Source of the DNA: Candidatus Aenigmatarchaeota archaeon
Lineage (GTDB): Archaea > Aenigmatarchaeota > Aenigmatarchaeia > Aenigmatarchaeales > JAHLMS01
Reading direction: 5' to 3'
Length of the DNA stretch: 58,307 nucleotides
NCBI GenBank assembly: GCA_018920245.1
Contig: JAHLMS010000002.1
Span: 1-58,307, forward strand
The notes under the pieces are model-generated. The model saw nothing but the letters and a program-made list of their open reading frames with translations. It had not been told where the DNA came from and did not search any database. This document shows positions 8,772 to 48,897 of this stretch, piece by piece. The translations under genes and the position numbers were made by a program. Numbering within the stretch: position 1 is the stretch's first letter; each line of letters begins with the position of its first letter.

Positions 8772-9200
8772 ATGCGCGGACAGGTAAAGATAGAGTTCGT
8801 ATTGGCAGTTGTTGCATTTGCTGCCATAGCCTTAATAATAGCAACACAGATAAATGCTGCATTCACTACAGTGGCTGAGTCGTCGAGAACTGACATGTTG
8901 AGAGCAAGGGCGATAGGTCTCGCGAACCTGCTCACTACTGATACTACATGGCTCTCGACCGGCCAACCGAACAATATCTCAATGGCGAACCTTATAATGA
9001 TAAATTCGACGCGCGATGCCTTCGGACAGTGCAGCCTACTGGCACCTTTGCGCCTCGGTGGCTATAGACTCACAATAGCGAACTCCACACATACGCTCAT
9101 GCGTTGCGGTTCAGACACCGCTGGTGCAGGTGCTGTGAGTGTCATGCGGGTCGTCTGGATAGAACACGACTATGGCACGTTGACAGTGGAGATGTGGTAG
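8772..9200 (+). CDS. pilin-like protein
   Basis: MRG|QVKIEFVLAVVAFAAIALIIA. Gly is followed by a hydrophobic helix with Glu at +5, as in bacterial type IV pilins. Confidence 0.55.
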   Translation: MRGQVKIEFVLAVVAFAAIALIIATQINAAFTTVAESSRTDMLRARAIGLANLLTTDTTWLSTGQPNNISMANLIMINSTRDAFGQCSLLAPLRLGGYRLTIANSTHTLMRCGSDTAGAGAVSVMRVVWIEHDYGTLTVEMW

Positions 9201-23709: not shown

Positions 23710-25379
23710 TTATGCCTACTATGACTTTCAACAGAAAAGACTTCTGCAAGCTTGTTGGGAAGGATTTCAGTGTTAAGGAGCTGAGCGAGAAGATTCCGAT
23801 GCTCGGTGTTGCCTGGGAACATGCCGAAGGCGATGAGATAGAGGTAGAGGTTTTCCCGAACAGGCCAGACATGCTCTCCGTCGAGGGCCTTGCACGCGCC
23901 TTCTCTGCATTTGTAAACATTGATGTCGGACTCCCTGAATATGTTGTTGAGGATGGTGGTTACAAAGTCCATGTAGACAAGTCTGTGACTGCAATCAGGC
24001 CATACATCGTATGCGCAGTTGTGAAGGGTGCGAAGCTGGACGATACTGCTATCAAGAGCCTGTTGCAACTCCAGGAGAAGCTACATGCAAGCCATTGCCG
24101 CAGAAGGGCGAAGGCCGCGATGGGTGTCTGCGACCTCGACAAAATAAAATTTCCTGTAAAATACACGACAGGCGCCCCGAACATAAATTTTACCCCGCTG
24201 GGTTGGGACACACCACATCCGCTTTCAGAGATACTTAAAAAACATCCGCGTGGCATCGAATATGGATGGATAATAGAGCGCAATACCGTGTTCCCTATAC
24301 TGGCGGATGCAAAGGACATGATACTGTCCATGCCACCTATAGTAAACAGCAAGGATGCTGCAATAACCGTAAAGACGAAGAACCTGTTCATAGACGTGAC
24401 AGGCACTGACCCGAAGACAGTCAAGGAAGTGCTGAATATCGTTGTCACTTCGTTGGCTGACCGTGGCGGAAAGTTGTATTCTGTCGATATTGATTATCCT
24501 AAGCTCACCGAAACCACACCTGACCTGTCACCAAGAATAGCCAAGCTGGACTTGAATTATGCGAACAAGCTGCTGGGGATAAAATTGGGTATCACAGAAG
24601 CGATAGATCTGCTCAAGCGCATGCGGTTCGATGCGGTTGAATTCCTGGACAGCAAAGAGTCTGTAATCGAGGTCACCGTTCCGGCATATCGCACAGATAT
24701 CATGCATCCAATAGACTTGGTGGAAGACATCGCGATAGCCTACGGTTATGAAAACTTCAAGCCAGAGCTGCCACCACTGTTCACGGTAGGTGAAGAGTCG
24801 TCGGATGAGGAGTTCAATCGAAAATTGATTTCAATTATGACTGGGCTCGGCTTCCAAGAAGCGCTCACATACGTGCTCAGCAACAGTATGAAGCTGTTCA
24901 CAAACATGGGCCTGAAGGAACAGCCGACCGTTCGTACTGTCAACCCACGCACTGTCGAGTTCACGTCAGTCCGCACATGGCTACTGCCGTCGTTGCTCGA
25001 AGCGCTGGCTGCAAATCAGCACAACCCTTTTCCACAGAAACTAGCTGAGATTGGCGAGTGCCTTGTTCTTGATAATTCGACCGACACAGGAACGCGCACA
25101 ATCCGAAAACTTGCCGCGGTCATTTGCTATGACGCTGCGAACCTGACGGAATGCAGATCTGTTGTCAATTCCATTCTGGGCAACCTTGGCCTGGAATATT
25201 CGGTAAGGCCGACTGAGCATCCAAGCTTCATACCGAGTCGTGTCGGTGAAATTCTCATCAACGGCAAGCCCGCAGGTTTCTTCGGAGAGATACATCCTGC
25301 CGTGCTTTCAAACTGGAAACTTGAAAAGGCCGTGATTGCTCTCGAGCTGGACGTTTCGGCGCTTCAGCCTGCCAGGTAG
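23703..25379 (+). CDS. pheT: phenylalanine--tRNA ligase beta subunit
   Basis: The B3_4 and B5 domain patterns are present (EVFPNRPDMLSVEGLARA, YRTDIMHPIDLVEDIAIAYGY). It overlaps pheS by 7 nt. Confidence 0.92.
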   Translation: MVIMPTMTFNRKDFCKLVGKDFSVKELSEKIPMLGVAWEHAEGDEIEVEVFPNRPDMLSVEGLARAFSAFVNIDVGLPEYVVEDGGYKVHVDKSVTAIRPYIVCAVVKGAKLDDTAIKSLLQLQEKLHASHCRRRAKAAMGVCDLDKIKFPVKYTTGAPNINFTPLGWDTPHPLSEILKKHPRGIEYGWIIERNTVFPILADAKDMILSMPPIVNSKDAAITVKTKNLFIDVTGTDPKTVKEVLNIVVTSLADRGGKLYSVDIDYPKLTETTPDLSPRIAKLDLNYANKLLGIKLGITEAIDLLKRMRFDAVEFLDSKESVIEVTVPAYRTDIMHPIDLVEDIAIAYGYENFKPELPPLFTVGEESSDEEFNRKLISIMTGLGFQEALTYVLSNSMKLFTNMGLKEQPTVRTVNPRTVEFTSVRTWLLPSLLEALAANQHNPFPQKLAEIGECLVLDNSTDTGTRTIRKLAAVICYDAANLTECRSVVNSILGNLGLEYSVRPTEHPSFIPSRVGEILINGKPAGFFGEIHPAVLSNWKLEKAVIALELDVSALQPAR

Positions 25380-26134
25380 TCCAACATCCTGTCGAACCAA
25401 TTCTTTCTTTTTGTTGGCTCAGTCCAAGCCTCGCCCGCTATCGATGCTGCCAAGCGCTTGAATTCGCGACTGGCCTTGCTGCGCGGGCTATAATTGACAA
25501 CGGGCATCTTCGCGGCGATGGCCTTTGGCACCGCCTTATCCTCAGGCACGACAGCTATCACAGGAACCTCAAGCATGTCGCGAATCTCAGAAACAGAAAT
25601 TTCATGGCTATGACCTCTTACGCGGTTGACCACAACACCAAGCACCTTCGTGCCTATCTCGTTAGCCATCTTGATTGCTTTCAGCGCGTCTGTGAGAGCA
25701 GGCAAGTCTGGATTCGTGACTATTATCATTTCATCGGAAACTTCCATTATGGCTGTTGCCTCCTTTCCCAGACCTGCGGCACCATCTATCAGTATTATTT
25801 CCGCTGCGCCAAGCAGGTTCATAAGGGCACCTGCAAGCTTATTTATGTTGAGACCCTTGAGCGCGCCAACCGACAGCGAAGCTGGTATGACCTGCATGCC
25901 TGAGCTATGCTTGTATATCGCGCTCCGTATATGCGCATCGCCCTTCAGCGCATCATGCAAGGTTATCGGTGCCAGCGGTATGCCTAGGTGAAGGGAGAGG
26001 TTCGGCGTCGTGACGTTGCCGTCTATGACAATAACAGACTTCCCTTTCTCAGCGAGCGCCGCACCGATGTTAGAAGTGGTCGTAGTCTTTCCCACACCAC
26101 CCTTGGCCGAGAGCACGGCAATTATGCGTGTCAT
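25364..26134 (-). CDS. minD: MinD/ParA-family P-loop ATPase
   Basis: Deviant Walker A SAKGGVGKTTTTSN, plus IIDGAAGL. There is a convergent 16-nt overlap with pheT. Confidence 0.85.
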   Translation of the reverse strand: MTRIIAVLSAKGGVGKTTTTSNIGAALAEKGKSVIVIDGNVTTPNLSLHLGIPLAPITLHDALKGDAHIRSAIYKHSSGMQVIPASLSVGALKGLNINKLAGALMNLLGAAEIILIDGAAGLGKEATAIMEVSDEMIIVTNPDLPALTDALKAIKMANEIGTKVLGVVVNRVRGHSHEISVSEIRDMLEVPVIAVVPEDKAVPKAIAAKMPVVNYSPRSKASREFKRLAASIAGEAWTEPTKRKNWFDRMLDYLAG

Positions 26135-26174: not shown

Positions 26175-27113
26175 CTACCAGACCGTTCTGAGCAGCATCA
26201 CATTGTTGTTGGGGTACATATCGGTGTTTTTCCTGCCTGGGTCTATCACCAGCTCAAGTTCAGTGATGTCAGAAAGTACAGTTATCTTGCCTGTTATGGT
26301 AAGTTGCGAGCCAGGCTCGATGACCGGCAAGTCAAAGGTTCCGATAACATTGCTTCTGGCTTTTATTTGTAGTTCAGTCGCATTTGAGTCCAGCAGCCCT
26401 CTGTTCATTACAACCATTTTTATGTCGAGATGTACATTGCGCTTCGTCGATGTTACATTCATGAACGTCAGATCAGGCGCCGGCTGCATCCTGTACAGTT
26501 CTTTCAACGTATCAAGAATATCAGGTGTCACCCTCTGCAGGCAATGTAGTTGAGGGTACATTATATCGTAATAGCGCACAGCGGGATTTGTCGTATTAGG
26601 ATGGTCAAGACCCAGCGCATGTCCGAGCTCATGTGCCGCGACCAACTGAGGACAGCTCGTCGAAAAGCTGGTTTTTGTAACTATTGTTACTTCACAACCT
26701 ACAGAAAGGTTGAACAGACCAGTATCGATAACCTTTGGCATGCTGGTGCCGAGTTCGACTGCCTCTTCACCGACAACGGGCACCTCTTTTGTCCATCTTA
26801 CCGTAATGTCGGCTACCTGTGGGCTGTCGACTTCCTTGAATGCAACAAGCCCGTCTGTCTGGTCTTTCCATATTTTCATCCCTTCCCTGAACGCTTCAAT
26901 ATCTCTGTCAGTGGCATTCTGTGTATACATGTAAATTGTCACGGGCATATGGTTCCATCTGAAGTTATCAAACATGAGTGCGTGTGTTTTATTGAATGTT
27001 ATGTTCTCAATGGTGTAGTTGGTAGGCTCCAATTCAGATGGAAAGGATGCCTGCTCTGCAATGCAACCAGATATCATAACAGCCGCAAGCAATGTTAATG
27101 CTATGCACCTCAT
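26175..27113 (-). CDS. secreted matrixin-like (M10) zinc metalloprotease with a CARDB-like C-terminal domain
   Basis: AAHELGHALGLDHPN followed by a Met-turn (DIMYP). The N-terminus MRCIALTLLAAVMISGC looks like a signal or lipobox. I moved the start to 27113 because the track's upstream extension (to 27203) lies over a tRNA gene. Confidence 0.8.
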   Translation of the reverse strand: MRCIALTLLAAVMISGCIAEQASFPSELEPTNYTIENITFNKTHALMFDNFRWNHMPVTIYMYTQNATDRDIEAFREGMKIWKDQTDGLVAFKEVDSPQVADITVRWTKEVPVVGEEAVELGTSMPKVIDTGLFNLSVGCEVTIVTKTSFSTSCPQLVAAHELGHALGLDHPNTTNPAVRYYDIMYPQLHCLQRVTPDILDTLKELYRMQPAPDLTFMNVTSTKRNVHLDIKMVVMNRGLLDSNATELQIKARSNVIGTFDLPVIEPGSQLTITGKITVLSDITELELVIDPGRKNTDMYPNNNVMLLRTVW

Positions 27114-27127
27114 GCGTTCACCATGAT

Positions 27128-27310
27128 TGGTGCCCCGGAAGGGATTTTCACGCTGCCAGTTTCTGCTTTGAACCCTCGACCTCTTGCTATCTTCATCCAT
27201 CACAGAGTGATGGTCAGTTCTTCTAAGTTGGACTTAGAAGGTTCGCCAATGGAACCCGGAGGTTCGCCGAAGGCATCTCAAGCGCTCTATCCAACCTGAG
27301 CTACCGGGGC
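27128..27310 (-). tRNA. tRNA-Arg(UCU) with three introns (30/31, 37/38, 59/60) and an encoded CCA
   Basis: The minus strand reads GCCCCGG-TA-GCTC-AGGTTGGATA-GAGC-G-CTTG[27242-27278]C-CTTCTA[27189-27234]A-GCAAG-AGGTC-GAGGG-TTCAAA[27145-27166]T-CCCTT-CCGGGGC-A-CCA. The spliced product is a perfect cloverleaf with G18G19A20, U33 and a TTCAAAT T-loop. All three inserts can be drawn as bulge-helix-bulge motifs; details are in the findings. Confidence 0.78.
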
Positions 27311-27332: not shown

Positions 27333-27348
27333 CTTATAAATTTATAAG
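27333..27348. promoter_or_regulatory. palindromic TATA element shared by divergent tRNA-Arg and leuS
   Basis: CTTATAAATTTATAAG is a perfect 16-bp palindrome. Its centre is about 30 nt from the tRNA 5' end (27310) and about 30 nt from the leuS ATG (27370). Confidence 0.45.
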
Positions 27349-27369: not shown

Positions 27370-30114
27370 ATGTCCGAATGGAAAAAGCTGGAAAGCAGAT
27401 GGCAGAGCGAATGGGCCAAGGCAAAGCTGTTCGAGGCCGAACCTGACAAACGTAAGAAGTACTATATAGTCTTTGCTTATCCTACTGTCAGCGGCACTTT
27501 GCATGCAGGCCAAATGCGCAGCTATAGCATACCCGACGTCATTGCCAGATATAAAAGAGCGCGAGGCTTCAATGTTTTCTTCCCGCTCGGTTTTCATGCC
27601 ACTGGCATTGATTGCCAACGCATCTTCGAAAAATCTAAGGATGCGGAAGCGATGGCAAGATACGGAATACCGGCTTCCGATGCGAAGAAATTCAAGTCAG
27701 CCGTCGATGTTGCTGAATATCTCCAGAAGCGTATGATAGCCTCATTCAAGCAGCTTGGACTATCGCTGGACTACAGGCCGGCTGTGAGCACCATTCATCC
27801 GCAGTATGGCAAGTTCATCCGATGGCAATTCAGGAAGCTTCGTGAGCTCGGATTATTAACACAAAAGGATTACCGCCTTGCCTGGTGTCCGATAGAGAAT
27901 CATCCTGTGAGCCTCGATCCAGCAGAAGCGGATATTCAAGAATGGAAAGGCGCACAAATTAAGGATTATGTGATAATCAAGTTCAAATGTGGCGATCTCG
28001 TTTTGCCTGCAGCTACAATGAGACCAGAAACAATCTTCGGCGTGACGAATGTGTGGCTCAACCCGAATGCAACATATGTACGCTCAAAGGTCGGAAATGA
28101 GACATGGCTCGTCGCTGAGCCTGCAGTCAAGAAGCTGCAAGACCTTGACAAAAAAGTGCAGGTGCTGGAAAAATTTGACGTCAGAAAAATAATCGGGGAG
28201 TCTGCACGCAACCCGGCGACAGGCAAAGATGTTCCTATCTTGGCTGGAGATTTTGCTGACCCTTCCGAAGCAACAGGCATAGTTATGTCCGTGCCAGCGC
28301 ATGACCCATACGATTTCATCTATCTCAAGACCGTTGCACCAGAGTTGAAACCTATTCAAGTTGTGGAGGTTCCAGGTTATGGTGCTGCTCCGGCCGGCGA
28401 GATAATAGCGAAGAACAAAATAACAGATCCCAAAGACAGCCGTCTGGAAAGTGTGGTCAAAGAACTTTATAAACTCGAATATAATGGCCGCATGCACGCG
28501 AACGCAAAACAATTCAAAGGAATGGCTGTGCCGAAGGCGAAGGTAGCAATAACACAGTGGCTCACGAAGCTGGGGTCGGCTGACATGATTTATGAGCTTT
28601 CTATCAAACCTGTGCATTGTAGATGTGGTGCTGAAATAATAATCAAGAAAGTGCCTGGCCAATGGTTCATCGACTATAGCAATGAGGAGTGGAAAGAAAA
28701 GGCTAAGAAGCATGTGCCAAAGATGAACATCTGGCCCAATGAATACAAAAAGGAGCTGCCGTCCATTATCGACTGGCTTGAGGCCCGGCCGTGCGTGCGG
28801 CGCAGGGGCCTAGGCACAGAGTTCCCATTCGAACCTGGTTGGATAATCGAGGCTATATCGGATAGCACAATTTACATGGCGTTCTATATTGTATCGAAAT
28901 ATTTCAACGAGGGCAAATTGAAGATGGATGATTTGACTGACGAGTTCTTCGACTATGTCTTTCTTGGAAAAGGTAAGGCTAGCAACAAACTGTGGAAAGA
29001 TATTCGCAACGAGTTCCTTTACTGGTACCCGCTCGATATAAATGCAATCGGTAAGGAGCACAAATCCGTGCACTTGCCGTTCTTCATCATGAATCATGTG
29101 GCGATATTTCCTGAGAAGCATTGGCCTAGCGGCATATTTGTGAACTGGCACCTTGTAGCCTATGGCAAGAAGATGTCAAAACACTTAGGAAATGTTATAT
29201 TCTGGCATGATGCCATTGAAAAATATGGTGCTGATGCGATAAGGCTGTACCTGACACACGGTTCTAACCAGTGGCACGATTTCGACTGGCGCAACGAGGA
29301 ATGCGAAGGCTACGGCAGGCAACTGATGAACTTTTACAACATGGTGCAGAGGTTGACCAAGATCAAAACAAAAGCGACTGCTGTAAGACCGATAGACCGC
29401 TGGTTGCGCTCTCGGTTGAACCGCCACATAAAGGATGTGACCACCGCGCTAGATATTGCTGAAATACGCAAGGCAGTTGACATAGCATTTTTCAACATCC
29501 TGTCTGACGTGGGCTGGTATTTGAAGAGAACCGATAATCCACGCACCGACTGGCTCGGTGACTGGCTAAGGTTGCTCGCACCTTTCATACCACATGTTGC
29601 AGAGGACCTATGGCATGCAATCGGTAATAAAGATTTCATAATCAATGCAGGCTGGCCAGCGTACGATGGCAAGGCTATAAATCCAACGATAGAAGCAGCT
29701 GAGAACCTTGTCCGAAAGGTGCAGGGCGACATCGATGAGATAAAGAAGATATCCGGTATTTCAAAACCAGCAAAAATATCTTTGATTGTAAGTGCTCCAT
29801 GGAAATACGATGTCTATAACATGGTAATGGGCGGGAAGCCGTTGCACGAAATAATGGAAGATAAGACATTGAAACCTCTCGGCAAGGCTGTTGTCACATA
29901 TGTGCAGAAACTGGAGAAAAGGAAGCCGCTTGATGAACTGTTCCTTGGTGCAGGCAGCGAGCTCGCGGCCCTGCGAGATGCCAAGGATTTCTTTGAGAAA
30001 GTCTTCAGCTGTCCTGTTGAGATATGGGAAGCGGAGAAGGCTGCGAATATTTCTGAACTTGCTAACAAGGCTTCCGCCGCAGAGCCTTGCAAACCAGGTA
30101 TACTACTTGTCTGA
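27370..30114 (+). CDS. leuS: leucine--tRNA ligase (archaeal type)
   Basis: Class I with a HIGH-like GTLHAGQ and a KMSKHLGN (KMSKS) motif. A CP1 editing domain is present. 914 aa. Confidence 0.93.
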   Translation: MSEWKKLESRWQSEWAKAKLFEAEPDKRKKYYIVFAYPTVSGTLHAGQMRSYSIPDVIARYKRARGFNVFFPLGFHATGIDCQRIFEKSKDAEAMARYGIPASDAKKFKSAVDVAEYLQKRMIASFKQLGLSLDYRPAVSTIHPQYGKFIRWQFRKLRELGLLTQKDYRLAWCPIENHPVSLDPAEADIQEWKGAQIKDYVIIKFKCGDLVLPAATMRPETIFGVTNVWLNPNATYVRSKVGNETWLVAEPAVKKLQDLDKKVQVLEKFDVRKIIGESARNPATGKDVPILAGDFADPSEATGIVMSVPAHDPYDFIYLKTVAPELKPIQVVEVPGYGAAPAGEIIAKNKITDPKDSRLESVVKELYKLEYNGRMHANAKQFKGMAVPKAKVAITQWLTKLGSADMIYELSIKPVHCRCGAEIIIKKVPGQWFIDYSNEEWKEKAKKHVPKMNIWPNEYKKELPSIIDWLEARPCVRRRGLGTEFPFEPGWIIEAISDSTIYMAFYIVSKYFNEGKLKMDDLTDEFFDYVFLGKGKASNKLWKDIRNEFLYWYPLDINAIGKEHKSVHLPFFIMNHVAIFPEKHWPSGIFVNWHLVAYGKKMSKHLGNVIFWHDAIEKYGADAIRLYLTHGSNQWHDFDWRNEECEGYGRQLMNFYNMVQRLTKIKTKATAVRPIDRWLRSRLNRHIKDVTTALDIAEIRKAVDIAFFNILSDVGWYLKRTDNPRTDWLGDWLRLLAPFIPHVAEDLWHAIGNKDFIINAGWPAYDGKAINPTIEAAENLVRKVQGDIDEIKKISGISKPAKISLIVSAPWKYDVYNMVMGGKPLHEIMEDKTLKPLGKAVVTYVQKLEKRKPLDELFLGAGSELAALRDAKDFFEKVFSCPVEIWEAEKAANISELANKASAAEPCKPGILLV

Positions 30115-48802: not shown

Positions 48803-48897
48803 TGGTAGCCCCGGGAGGATTCGAACCTCCGTCTAGAGGTTTCCCTTTTGATAATTGCTCCAGAGCCTCTCATGCTTGGCCACTACACCACGGGGCT
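48803..48897 (-). tRNA. tRNA-Gln(CUG) with a 19-nt canonical intron and an encoded CCA
   Basis: AGCCCCG-TG-GTGT-AGTGGCCAA-GCAT-G-AGAGG-CTCTGG[48841-48859]A-CCTCT-AGAC-GGAGG-TTCGAAT-CCTCC-CGGGGCT-A-CCA. The central BHB helix is CTCT/AGGG. Confidence 0.9.

Follow-up and report, generated by a model that had tools for sequence, protein, structure and literature searches.

On the minus strand, positions 27128..27310 of the window, by which we mean the whole 58,307-nucleotide stretch of contig JAHLMS010000002.1 that was analysed, contain a tRNA-Arg(UCU) gene that is interrupted by three introns and encodes its CCA. All seven parts of the gene are read on this strand. Exon 1 (27279..27310) provides tRNA positions 1-30 and has the same sequence in lineages L001, L081, L082, and L084; it is followed by intron 1 (27242..27278), which is inserted at position 30/31 and is 37 nt long when it ends at its downstream acceptor, copy B. 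Exon 2 (27235..27241) is a 7-nt micro-exon, CCTTCTA, that comprises positions 31-37 with the anticodon UCU and is kept in every orthologue with intron 1. Intron 2 (27189..27234; 46 nt) occupies the canonical position 37/38, exon 3 (27167..27188) comprises positions 38-59, intron 3 (27145..27166; 22 nt) lies in the T-loop at position 59/60 with a boundary that slides by up to 3 nt in A runs, and exon 4 (27128..27144) provides positions 60-73 and the CCA. Exons 1, 3, and 4 were assigned by running ARAGORN on the joined exons. When all four exons were joined, ARAGORN revealed a perfect 78-nt cloverleaf, tRNA-Arg(tct), and the spliced tRNA carried the arginine identity elements A20, C35, and discriminator A. 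ARAGORN and Rfam searches of the unspliced 183-nt gene (27310-27128) gave no match.

Each of the three introns is bounded by a BHB motif with two 3-nt bulges and 4 bp between them. The intron 1 BHB formed with copy B consists of h GAG/CUU, H CGCU/GGCG, and h' GAU/AUU with bulges UG|A and AA|C, in agreement with the CGCT/GGCG helix and AA|C bulge described in an earlier note on this DNA. The intron 2 BHB is strict, with H CUUC/GAAG, bulges UA|A and AU|A, and a 5-bp h' GUCCA/UGGAU, and is as clean as that note had stated for the downstream anticodon cassette. In the intron 3 BHB, H (UUCA/UGAA) is perfect, the T-stem serves as h, and h' is weak. The earlier note had correctly placed intron 1 at 30/31, the 7-nt micro-exon, and the canonical intron 2 in a tRNA-Arg gene, although it overlooked the third intron in the T-loop. 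The cloverleaf, the BHB-bounded inserts, and the existence of insert-free orthologues that share the same exon junctions place the gene in the archaeal multi-intron tRNA class, and 27310-27128 truly encodes tRNA-Arg(UCU), with three BHB introns, in an archaeon of the DPANN lineage Aenigmatarchaeota.

The divergent neighbour of the tRNA gene encodes LeuRS (27370-30114). An identical LeuRS sequence was not found on record, but homologues led to relatives that assign the window to Candidatus Aenigmatarchaeota. A perfect 16-nt palindromic TATA element, CTTATAAATTTATAAG, was read directly in the sequence between the two genes (27333..27348); it places TTTATAA 24-30 nt upstream of tRNA position 1, and a similar TTTATAA is present in L082 and L088. 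The occurrence of CTTATAAATTTATAAG in the 59-nt tRNA-LeuRS spacer resembles back-to-back TATA boxes and may represent a bidirectional promoter. A split or tri-split tRNA was ruled out, as a single TATA element precedes one uninterrupted gene of 183 nt that includes all parts. On the other side, a mechanically called 342-aa open reading frame (26175-27203, minus strand) overlaps the 3' part of the tRNA gene; in near-identical MAGs, the called gene at this place encodes 312 aa (Peptidase_M10, CARDB), starts with MRCIALTLL, and lies downstream of the tRNA. We also observed that a ParA/MinD-like ATPase has 256 aa in the window (25364-26134) but 731 aa in L083 (1792-3987, minus strand), where it matches Intein_splicing and LAGLIDADG_3, which suggests an intein-containing allele. 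ARAGORN also mislabelled two other intron-containing genes: the tRNA-Gln(CUG) gene of the window (48806-48897, minus strand) was returned as 'tRNA-???' with a 4-nt anticodon, and the two-intron Arg(UCU) gene of L081 (2629-2765) was called Arg(acg) when introns were allowed.

Orthologues of the tRNA gene were found by synteny with LeuRS in 13 other lineages, giving 14 with the window. The anticodon is UCU in 14/14 orthologous lineages, and the UCU cassette has a strict canonical BHB. The intron at 37/38 is present in all orthologues, and the intron at 30/31 is present in the window clade and L088. Intron 1 is absent in L002, L003, L005, L006, L004, L089, and L090/L091, whose LeuRS identity to the window is 57-61%. 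Five lineages (L001, L084, L081, L082, and L088) have a single-acceptor intron 1 of 14-15 nt with one GGCGAA|CCTTCTA and with neither the upstream cassette described below nor intron 3; this indicates that a single acceptor copy is sufficient. LeuRS identity to the window is 77% for L001 and L084, 63% for L088, and 78.6% for L083; L081 and L082 are metagenome matches, and L083 comes from an independent Logan assembly. A metagenome scan with exon 1 revealed two orthologues among the matches listed, both of which are single-copy. A scan of viral contigs with the conserved 28-mer gave no match, and when the LeuRS N-terminus was used to look for closer relatives on short contigs, all matches were distant.

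The remaining introns of this gene were distributed unevenly. A T-loop intron was found only in the window (22 nt) and in L004 (approximately 110 nt, 5810-5700, minus strand), and a D-loop intron was found in L083 (about 5417-5387, minus strand) and in the gene upstream of LeuRS in L090/L091. Intron turnover is rapid in this one tRNA-Arg(UCU) gene across Aenigmatarchaeota. Arginine codon usage also differed sharply within Aenigmatarchaeota: CGN codons make up approximately 64% of the arginine codons in the window and 50-65% across the clade, and in the low-GC relatives L004, L005, and L006, AGA accounts for approximately 80% of the arginine codons and CGG for approximately 0-1%.

In the region of intron 1 and exon 2, the minus strand carries the 9-mer GGCGAACCT at two places, 27268-27260 (copy A) and 27247-27239 (copy B). 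Copy A (27260..27268) provides the H' strand, the AA|C bulge, and the first bases of a pseudo-exon, and the 12 nt GGCGAACCTCCG at this site are the same in L083. An intron 1 of ancestral type that ends at this upstream acceptor would be 16 nt long (27263..27278) and matches the 14-15-nt intron 1 of L001, L084, L081, L082, and L088. The pseudo-micro-exon that follows, CCTCCGG (27256..27262; CCTCCGA in L083), would give tRNA positions 31-37 with the anticodon CCG; we refer to this upstream unit as cassette A and to the downstream unit with the UCU micro-exon as cassette B. The middle segment, GGGTTCC (27251..27257), has complementarity to the repeat, and either copy A (hairpin 1) or copy B (hairpin 2) can serve as its pairing partner. 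Copy B (27239..27247), identified by the repeat search and its BHB, is the acceptor that yields the UCU tRNA. The window contains three copies of GGCGAACCT compared with 0.33 expected; the third, at 8984, was rejected as part of the same element and is an unrelated chance match.

Compared with the five single-copy orthologues, the extra copy stands out as a clean insertion of 21-23 nt with the 9-nt repeat at its borders, and the duplicated anticodon-loop cassette proposed in the earlier note is real. The 20-nt spacing given there should be replaced by a start-to-start period of 21 nt, and the 18 nt of cassette B as written end at 27230 rather than 27231. Cassettes A and B differ by 0 changes in the first 9 nt and 7 in the next 12. 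Past the 9-mer, the copies agree at 5/12 positions in the window and at 7/12 in L083, including A37, and this closer resemblance in L083 supports an origin by tandem duplication of approximately 21 nt. Because the outgroup L088 has a single-copy intron 1, the single-copy acceptor is ancestral and the second copy is derived. We also considered the 21-nt insert as an independent BHB intron; this was ruled out, since two GGCG strands do not pair with each other and no central helix forms in shifted registers.

Three NCBI MAGs (L085, L086, and L087) with 99.77-99.84% DNA identity to the window contain the identical 183-nt gene, which excludes an assembly artefact without adding evolutionary depth. 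The genomes with cassette A are that of the window, GCA_039090675.1, GCA_039091605.1, GCA_039091035.1, and the SRR29366192 bin with L083; among the sister genomes, L001 belongs to CAYGWB01. The comparison with relatives suggested in the earlier note had a divided outcome, as the cassette was kept in L083 but was absent from L001, L084, L081, L082, and L088. L083 has cassette A and a D-loop intron, lacks intron 3, and has AGACATATCGGCGAACCTCCGAGGTTGCCATTGGCGAA as its intron 1. In a neighbour-joining tree of LeuRS, the sisterhood of the window and L083 was not resolved (bootstrap 23-58%), and the history of cassette A is compatible both with one gain and with a gain followed by repeat-mediated loss. 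Given these data, a repeat that arose by chance or in assembly has a negligible probability and is in practice refuted by the identical MAG copies and the L083 variant: the recurrence of a 9-mer within 40 nt in a 183-nt gene has an estimated probability of roughly 0.03, but the same sequence was found in four assemblies, a diverged version was present in the independent Logan assembly, and the indel against single-copy orthologues was clean.

Upon alignment of cassette A from the window and L083, we found GGCGAACCTCCG, GGTT, and CCATT to be the same, corresponding to 21/21 aligned positions. Otherwise, L083 differs by two 1-nt indels only, namely an A that follows CCG and a G that follows GGTT; at position 37, the hypothetical CCG loop carries G in the window and A in L083. 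Elsewhere, the two genes differ in the intron-1 loop (GAUGCCUUC in the window versus GACAUAUC in L083), the middle of intron 2, one T-stem pair, the 5' flank, and whole introns. The 21/21 identity, while neighbouring intron and flank sequence and whole introns differ, suggests that the cassette region has been under purifying selection rather than being a neutral relic.

To compare the two acceptors, we examined the BHB that each copy can form. Copy A keeps the complete ancestral hBHBh', with h GAG/CUC, H CGCU/GGCG, and h' GA/UC abutting GGCG. Across the five distinct sequences of this ancestral type (the single-copy orthologues and copy A of the window and L083), 45/45 pair cells are standard, and one h' pair covaries from G-C to A-U. 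The acceptor at copy B has an H equivalent to that of copy A, a G:U pair within h, and a new, weak h' (GAU/AUU in the window and GA/UU in L083).

Being complementary to the repeat, the segment between the two copies (GGGUUCC in the window and AGGUUGCC in L083) has both of them as possible pairing partners. In the window, the predicted energies are -7.2 kcal/mol for hairpin 1 with copy A, which is the GAACC-UCCG-GGUUC hairpin that had been noticed earlier, and -6.3 kcal/mol for hairpin 2 with copy B; in L083, they are -7.6 and -9.2 kcal/mol, respectively. An undiverged B-B duplicate would reach -1.9 kcal/mol only, and the changes in cassette A as well as both L083 indels add base pairs to the hairpins with the repeat. 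Local partition functions at 37 C gave 0.56-0.59 for the copy-A BHB versus 0.15 for the copy-B BHB in the window and 0.98 versus 0.002 in L083, and at 60-75 C, the window tipped mildly to copy B. Full-length constrained folds favoured copy B by 1.6-3.5 kcal/mol. Since local and full-length folds disagree, thermodynamics cannot name the acceptor that is used, and both acceptors are plausibly exposed in these models. A hairpin that solely masks the upstream acceptor was ruled out because the downstream copy is an equally good partner for this segment; the near-isoenergetic hairpins and the 37 C partition functions favouring the copy-A BHB likewise indicate that the upstream acceptor is not simply hidden.

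We consider it probable that the 21-nt tandem duplication has been kept as a folded element of intron 1 that is removed in one or two steps, with tRNA-Arg(UCU) as the only product. For this pathway, we infer the acceptor cut, the order of the steps, and the final product as follows. A tandem duplication of approximately 21 nt would have taken place in an ancestor shared by the window species and the L083 lineage; the duplicated piece would have comprised the 3' end of intron 1, the 7-nt anticodon micro-exon, and the start of intron 2, and the upstream duplicate, cassette A, would have ended up inside intron 1. The 5' part of cassette A, GGCGAACCU, has not changed since the duplication and can thus still form the complete ancestral acceptor BHB. 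Its 3' part has changed to become complementary to the repeat, allowing a stable hairpin with either copy. Removal in one step would use the donor UG|A and acceptor B. Removal in two steps would use acceptor A first, giving an intermediate with the junction CTTG|CCTCCGGGTTCC, and then a second cut of a relaxed hBH at UG|C together with acceptor B. The leftover after the acceptor-A cut would be 21-23 nt, an hBH motif, and as it keeps H (CGCU/GGCG), both bulges, and the outer helix, a second cut that returns it to the UCU pathway is possible. Relaxed motifs of the hBH type are known substrates of broad-specificity archaeal endonucleases (PMC4033280, PMC5829648), and L3-loop EndAs are reported from diverse DPANN lineages (PMC5829648).

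Several observations favour a folded intron element with a UCU product. UCU was found in 14/14 lineages together with an intron-2 segment complementary to the UCU loop, and five lineages splice intron 1 without cassette A. The changes in cassette A and both indels raise the pairing (-6.3 to -9.2 versus -1.9 kcal/mol), the CCG donor is defective in both cassette lineages, and the G/A difference at position 37 would be unusual for a conserved functional anticodon loop. Three observations count against this reading: the 21/21 conservation includes the loop UCCG, which the hairpin alone does not constrain; the hairpins are near-isoenergetic and the copy-A BHB is favoured locally at 37 C; and, after the acceptor-A cut, the conformer presenting the cassette-A donor is energetically no worse than its competitors.

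The principal alternative is cis alternative tRNA splicing, in which one precursor would have two possible products: acceptor B with the donor UA|A would give tRNA-Arg(UCU), and acceptor A with the donor GG|G (GA|G in L083) would give tRNA-Arg(CCG), with mutually exclusive hairpins selecting the exposed cassette. Both the structural hairpin and the dual isoacceptor had been left open in the earlier note; the universal UCU anticodon, the cassette-free lineages, and the defective donor favour the former, and we regard the latter as unlikely. Exon 1, CCTCCGG, and exons 3 and 4 joined give an equally good perfect cloverleaf, which ARAGORN identified as tRNA-Arg(ccg). Acceptor A also has the full ancestral hBHBh' in both lineages, and C32, U33, CCG, and a purine at 37 are kept across approximately 21% LeuRS divergence. 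However, that purine is G in the window and A in L083, and hairpin pairing is the better explanation of both window-L083 indels. All anticodons on the mutational path between UCU and CCG specify arginine, but an arginine anticodon is weak evidence because 6/16 possible anticodons with C35 retained are Arg.

To yield the CCG product, the donor would have to be cut at GG|G (GA|G in L083), in combination with the fixed 3' site of intron 2. The donor BHB of cassette A is poorer than that of cassette B, as the earlier note had recognised: a C:A mismatch is present in the 4-bp central helix in both the window and L083, and the inner helix has a U:U next to the bulge in the window and consists only of G:U, U-A, and U:G in L083. 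The C:A mismatch in H and the weak h', which both lineages share, argue against use of the donor. Modelled folds point the other way, as hairpin 2 would mask acceptor B and C31-U33 of cassette B, and with cassette B and intron 2 paired in their conserved 9-bp hairpin, the GAAG strand would become available to cassette A. After the acceptor-A cut, the conformer with the cassette-A donor is not energetically worse, and the 9-bp cassette B-intron 2 hairpin can persist.

The window contains tRNA genes for Phe(GAA), Gln(CUG), and Arg(UCU) only. A standalone tRNA-Arg(CCG) gene was not found in the window (heuristic search), in 88 sequences (ARAGORN with introns), or in 9 related loci (Rfam); this negative result applies to these loci and sequences and carries no weight for the genomes at large. 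CGG accounts for 9-15% of the arginine codons of the clade, which speaks for a CCG tRNA, but this share is alike in lineages with and without cassette A, arginine codon usage did not separate the cassette-A from the cassette-free lineages, and sister lineages with equal CGG usage do without the cassette. A trans-spliced precedent exists in the swapping of anticodon pieces in the tri-split tRNAs of Caldivirga (PMC4033280). Literature searches gave no precedent for cis alternative tRNA splicing, in line with the statement in the earlier note that no single-gene case was described. The further proposal that one gene provides two arginine isoacceptors through a bistable hairpin exposing the CCG or the UCU micro-exon, possibly in a temperature-dependent manner, as a single-locus counterpart of tri-split tRNAs, appears quite unlikely.

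A neutral relic, that is, a leftover of the duplication carried inside intron 1 without a role in folding or splicing, seems decidedly improbable. It agrees with the five lineages that splice intron 1 without cassette A and with the modest similarity of the copies past the 9-mer (5/12 in the window and 7/12 in L083). It is at odds with the 21/21 identity, since the two lineages have diverged in the introns and flanks nearby and differ by the gain or loss of whole introns. Moreover, the copies show 0 substitutions in the first 9 nt versus 7 in the last 12 (hypergeometric p ~0.007), and a perfect 9-nt direct repeat with a 21-nt spacing would be expected to be lost easily through slippage.

Separately from the duplicated cassette, we observed a guide-like layout in intron 2. 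In the window (27193-27228, minus strand), ACUUAGAAG is complementary to the anticodon loop and 2 further nt. The order of elements is a 7-10-bp duplex with the anticodon loop, a fixed 2-nt spacer (14/14 orthologues), CUGA (11/14), and RGAUGA 4-15 nt later (11/14), and the RGAUGA overlaps the BHB strand GAAG. From sequence, intron 2 is a putative box C'/D'-like guide whose target, by the N+5 rule, would be position 34; a terminal C/D pair was not found, and Rfam gave no match for this intron. The pre-tRNA-Trp intron of Haloferax volcanii is a box C/D guide for Cm34 and Um39 (PMC4090602). Intron 2 is similar to it in its pairing with the anticodon loop, in the presence of CUGA and RGAUGA, and in the location of position 34 five nt upstream of CUGA. 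In contrast, intron 2 contains only a C'/D'-like half, is 35-46 nt long, and belongs to another tRNA species, and the likeness concerns intron 2 and not the duplicated cassette.

We compared the gene with known systems. Archaeal multi-intron tRNA genes are present in Thermoproteales and ARMAN (Sugahara et al. 2007/2008, reviewed in PMC4033280 and PMC4090602). The present gene resembles these in being missed by standard tRNA finders and in the fast turnover of introns between relatives, but its host belongs to Aenigmatarchaeota (DPANN), and its intron holds a conserved duplicate of an acceptor and anticodon micro-exon with a bistable hairpin. Split and tri-split tRNAs, namely tRNA-Gly of Caldivirga maquilingensis and tRNA-Glu of Nanoarchaeum, share pieces and are assembled in trans from genes that are transcribed separately, which was experimentally shown (Fujishima 2009, Randau 2005, reviewed in PMC4033280). 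As in tri-split tRNAs, the anticodon lies on a short module with BHB sites near 30 and at 37/38, and isoacceptors could share one body; unlike in them, a single 183-nt gene holds the two cassettes one after the other, and the second cassette is a putative exon. The duplicated acceptor would also allow stepwise removal with the same final product, as in the general concept of recursive or nested splicing and of cryptic duplicated splice sites, although the machinery here is a protein BHB endonuclease with RtcB ligase and neither a spliceosome nor a ribozyme. Our literature searches revealed no report of a duplicated acceptor and micro-exon inside a tRNA intron.

With this gene, the occurrence of three-intron tRNA genes overlooked by standard finders extends to Aenigmatarchaeota, and such missed intron-bearing genes lead to apparent gaps in the tRNA sets of MAGs. 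The locus also provides a concrete evolutionary event, the tandem duplication of a BHB acceptor and an anticodon micro-exon followed by selection on the copy, and duplications of this kind would be raw material for module-swapping tRNAs such as the tri-split ones. If the upstream cassette is unused, the gene is a natural test case for the choice of the archaeal endonuclease between two equivalent acceptors. If it is used, this would be the first cis alternative tRNA splicing and a new way of encoding isoacceptors for reduced genomes.
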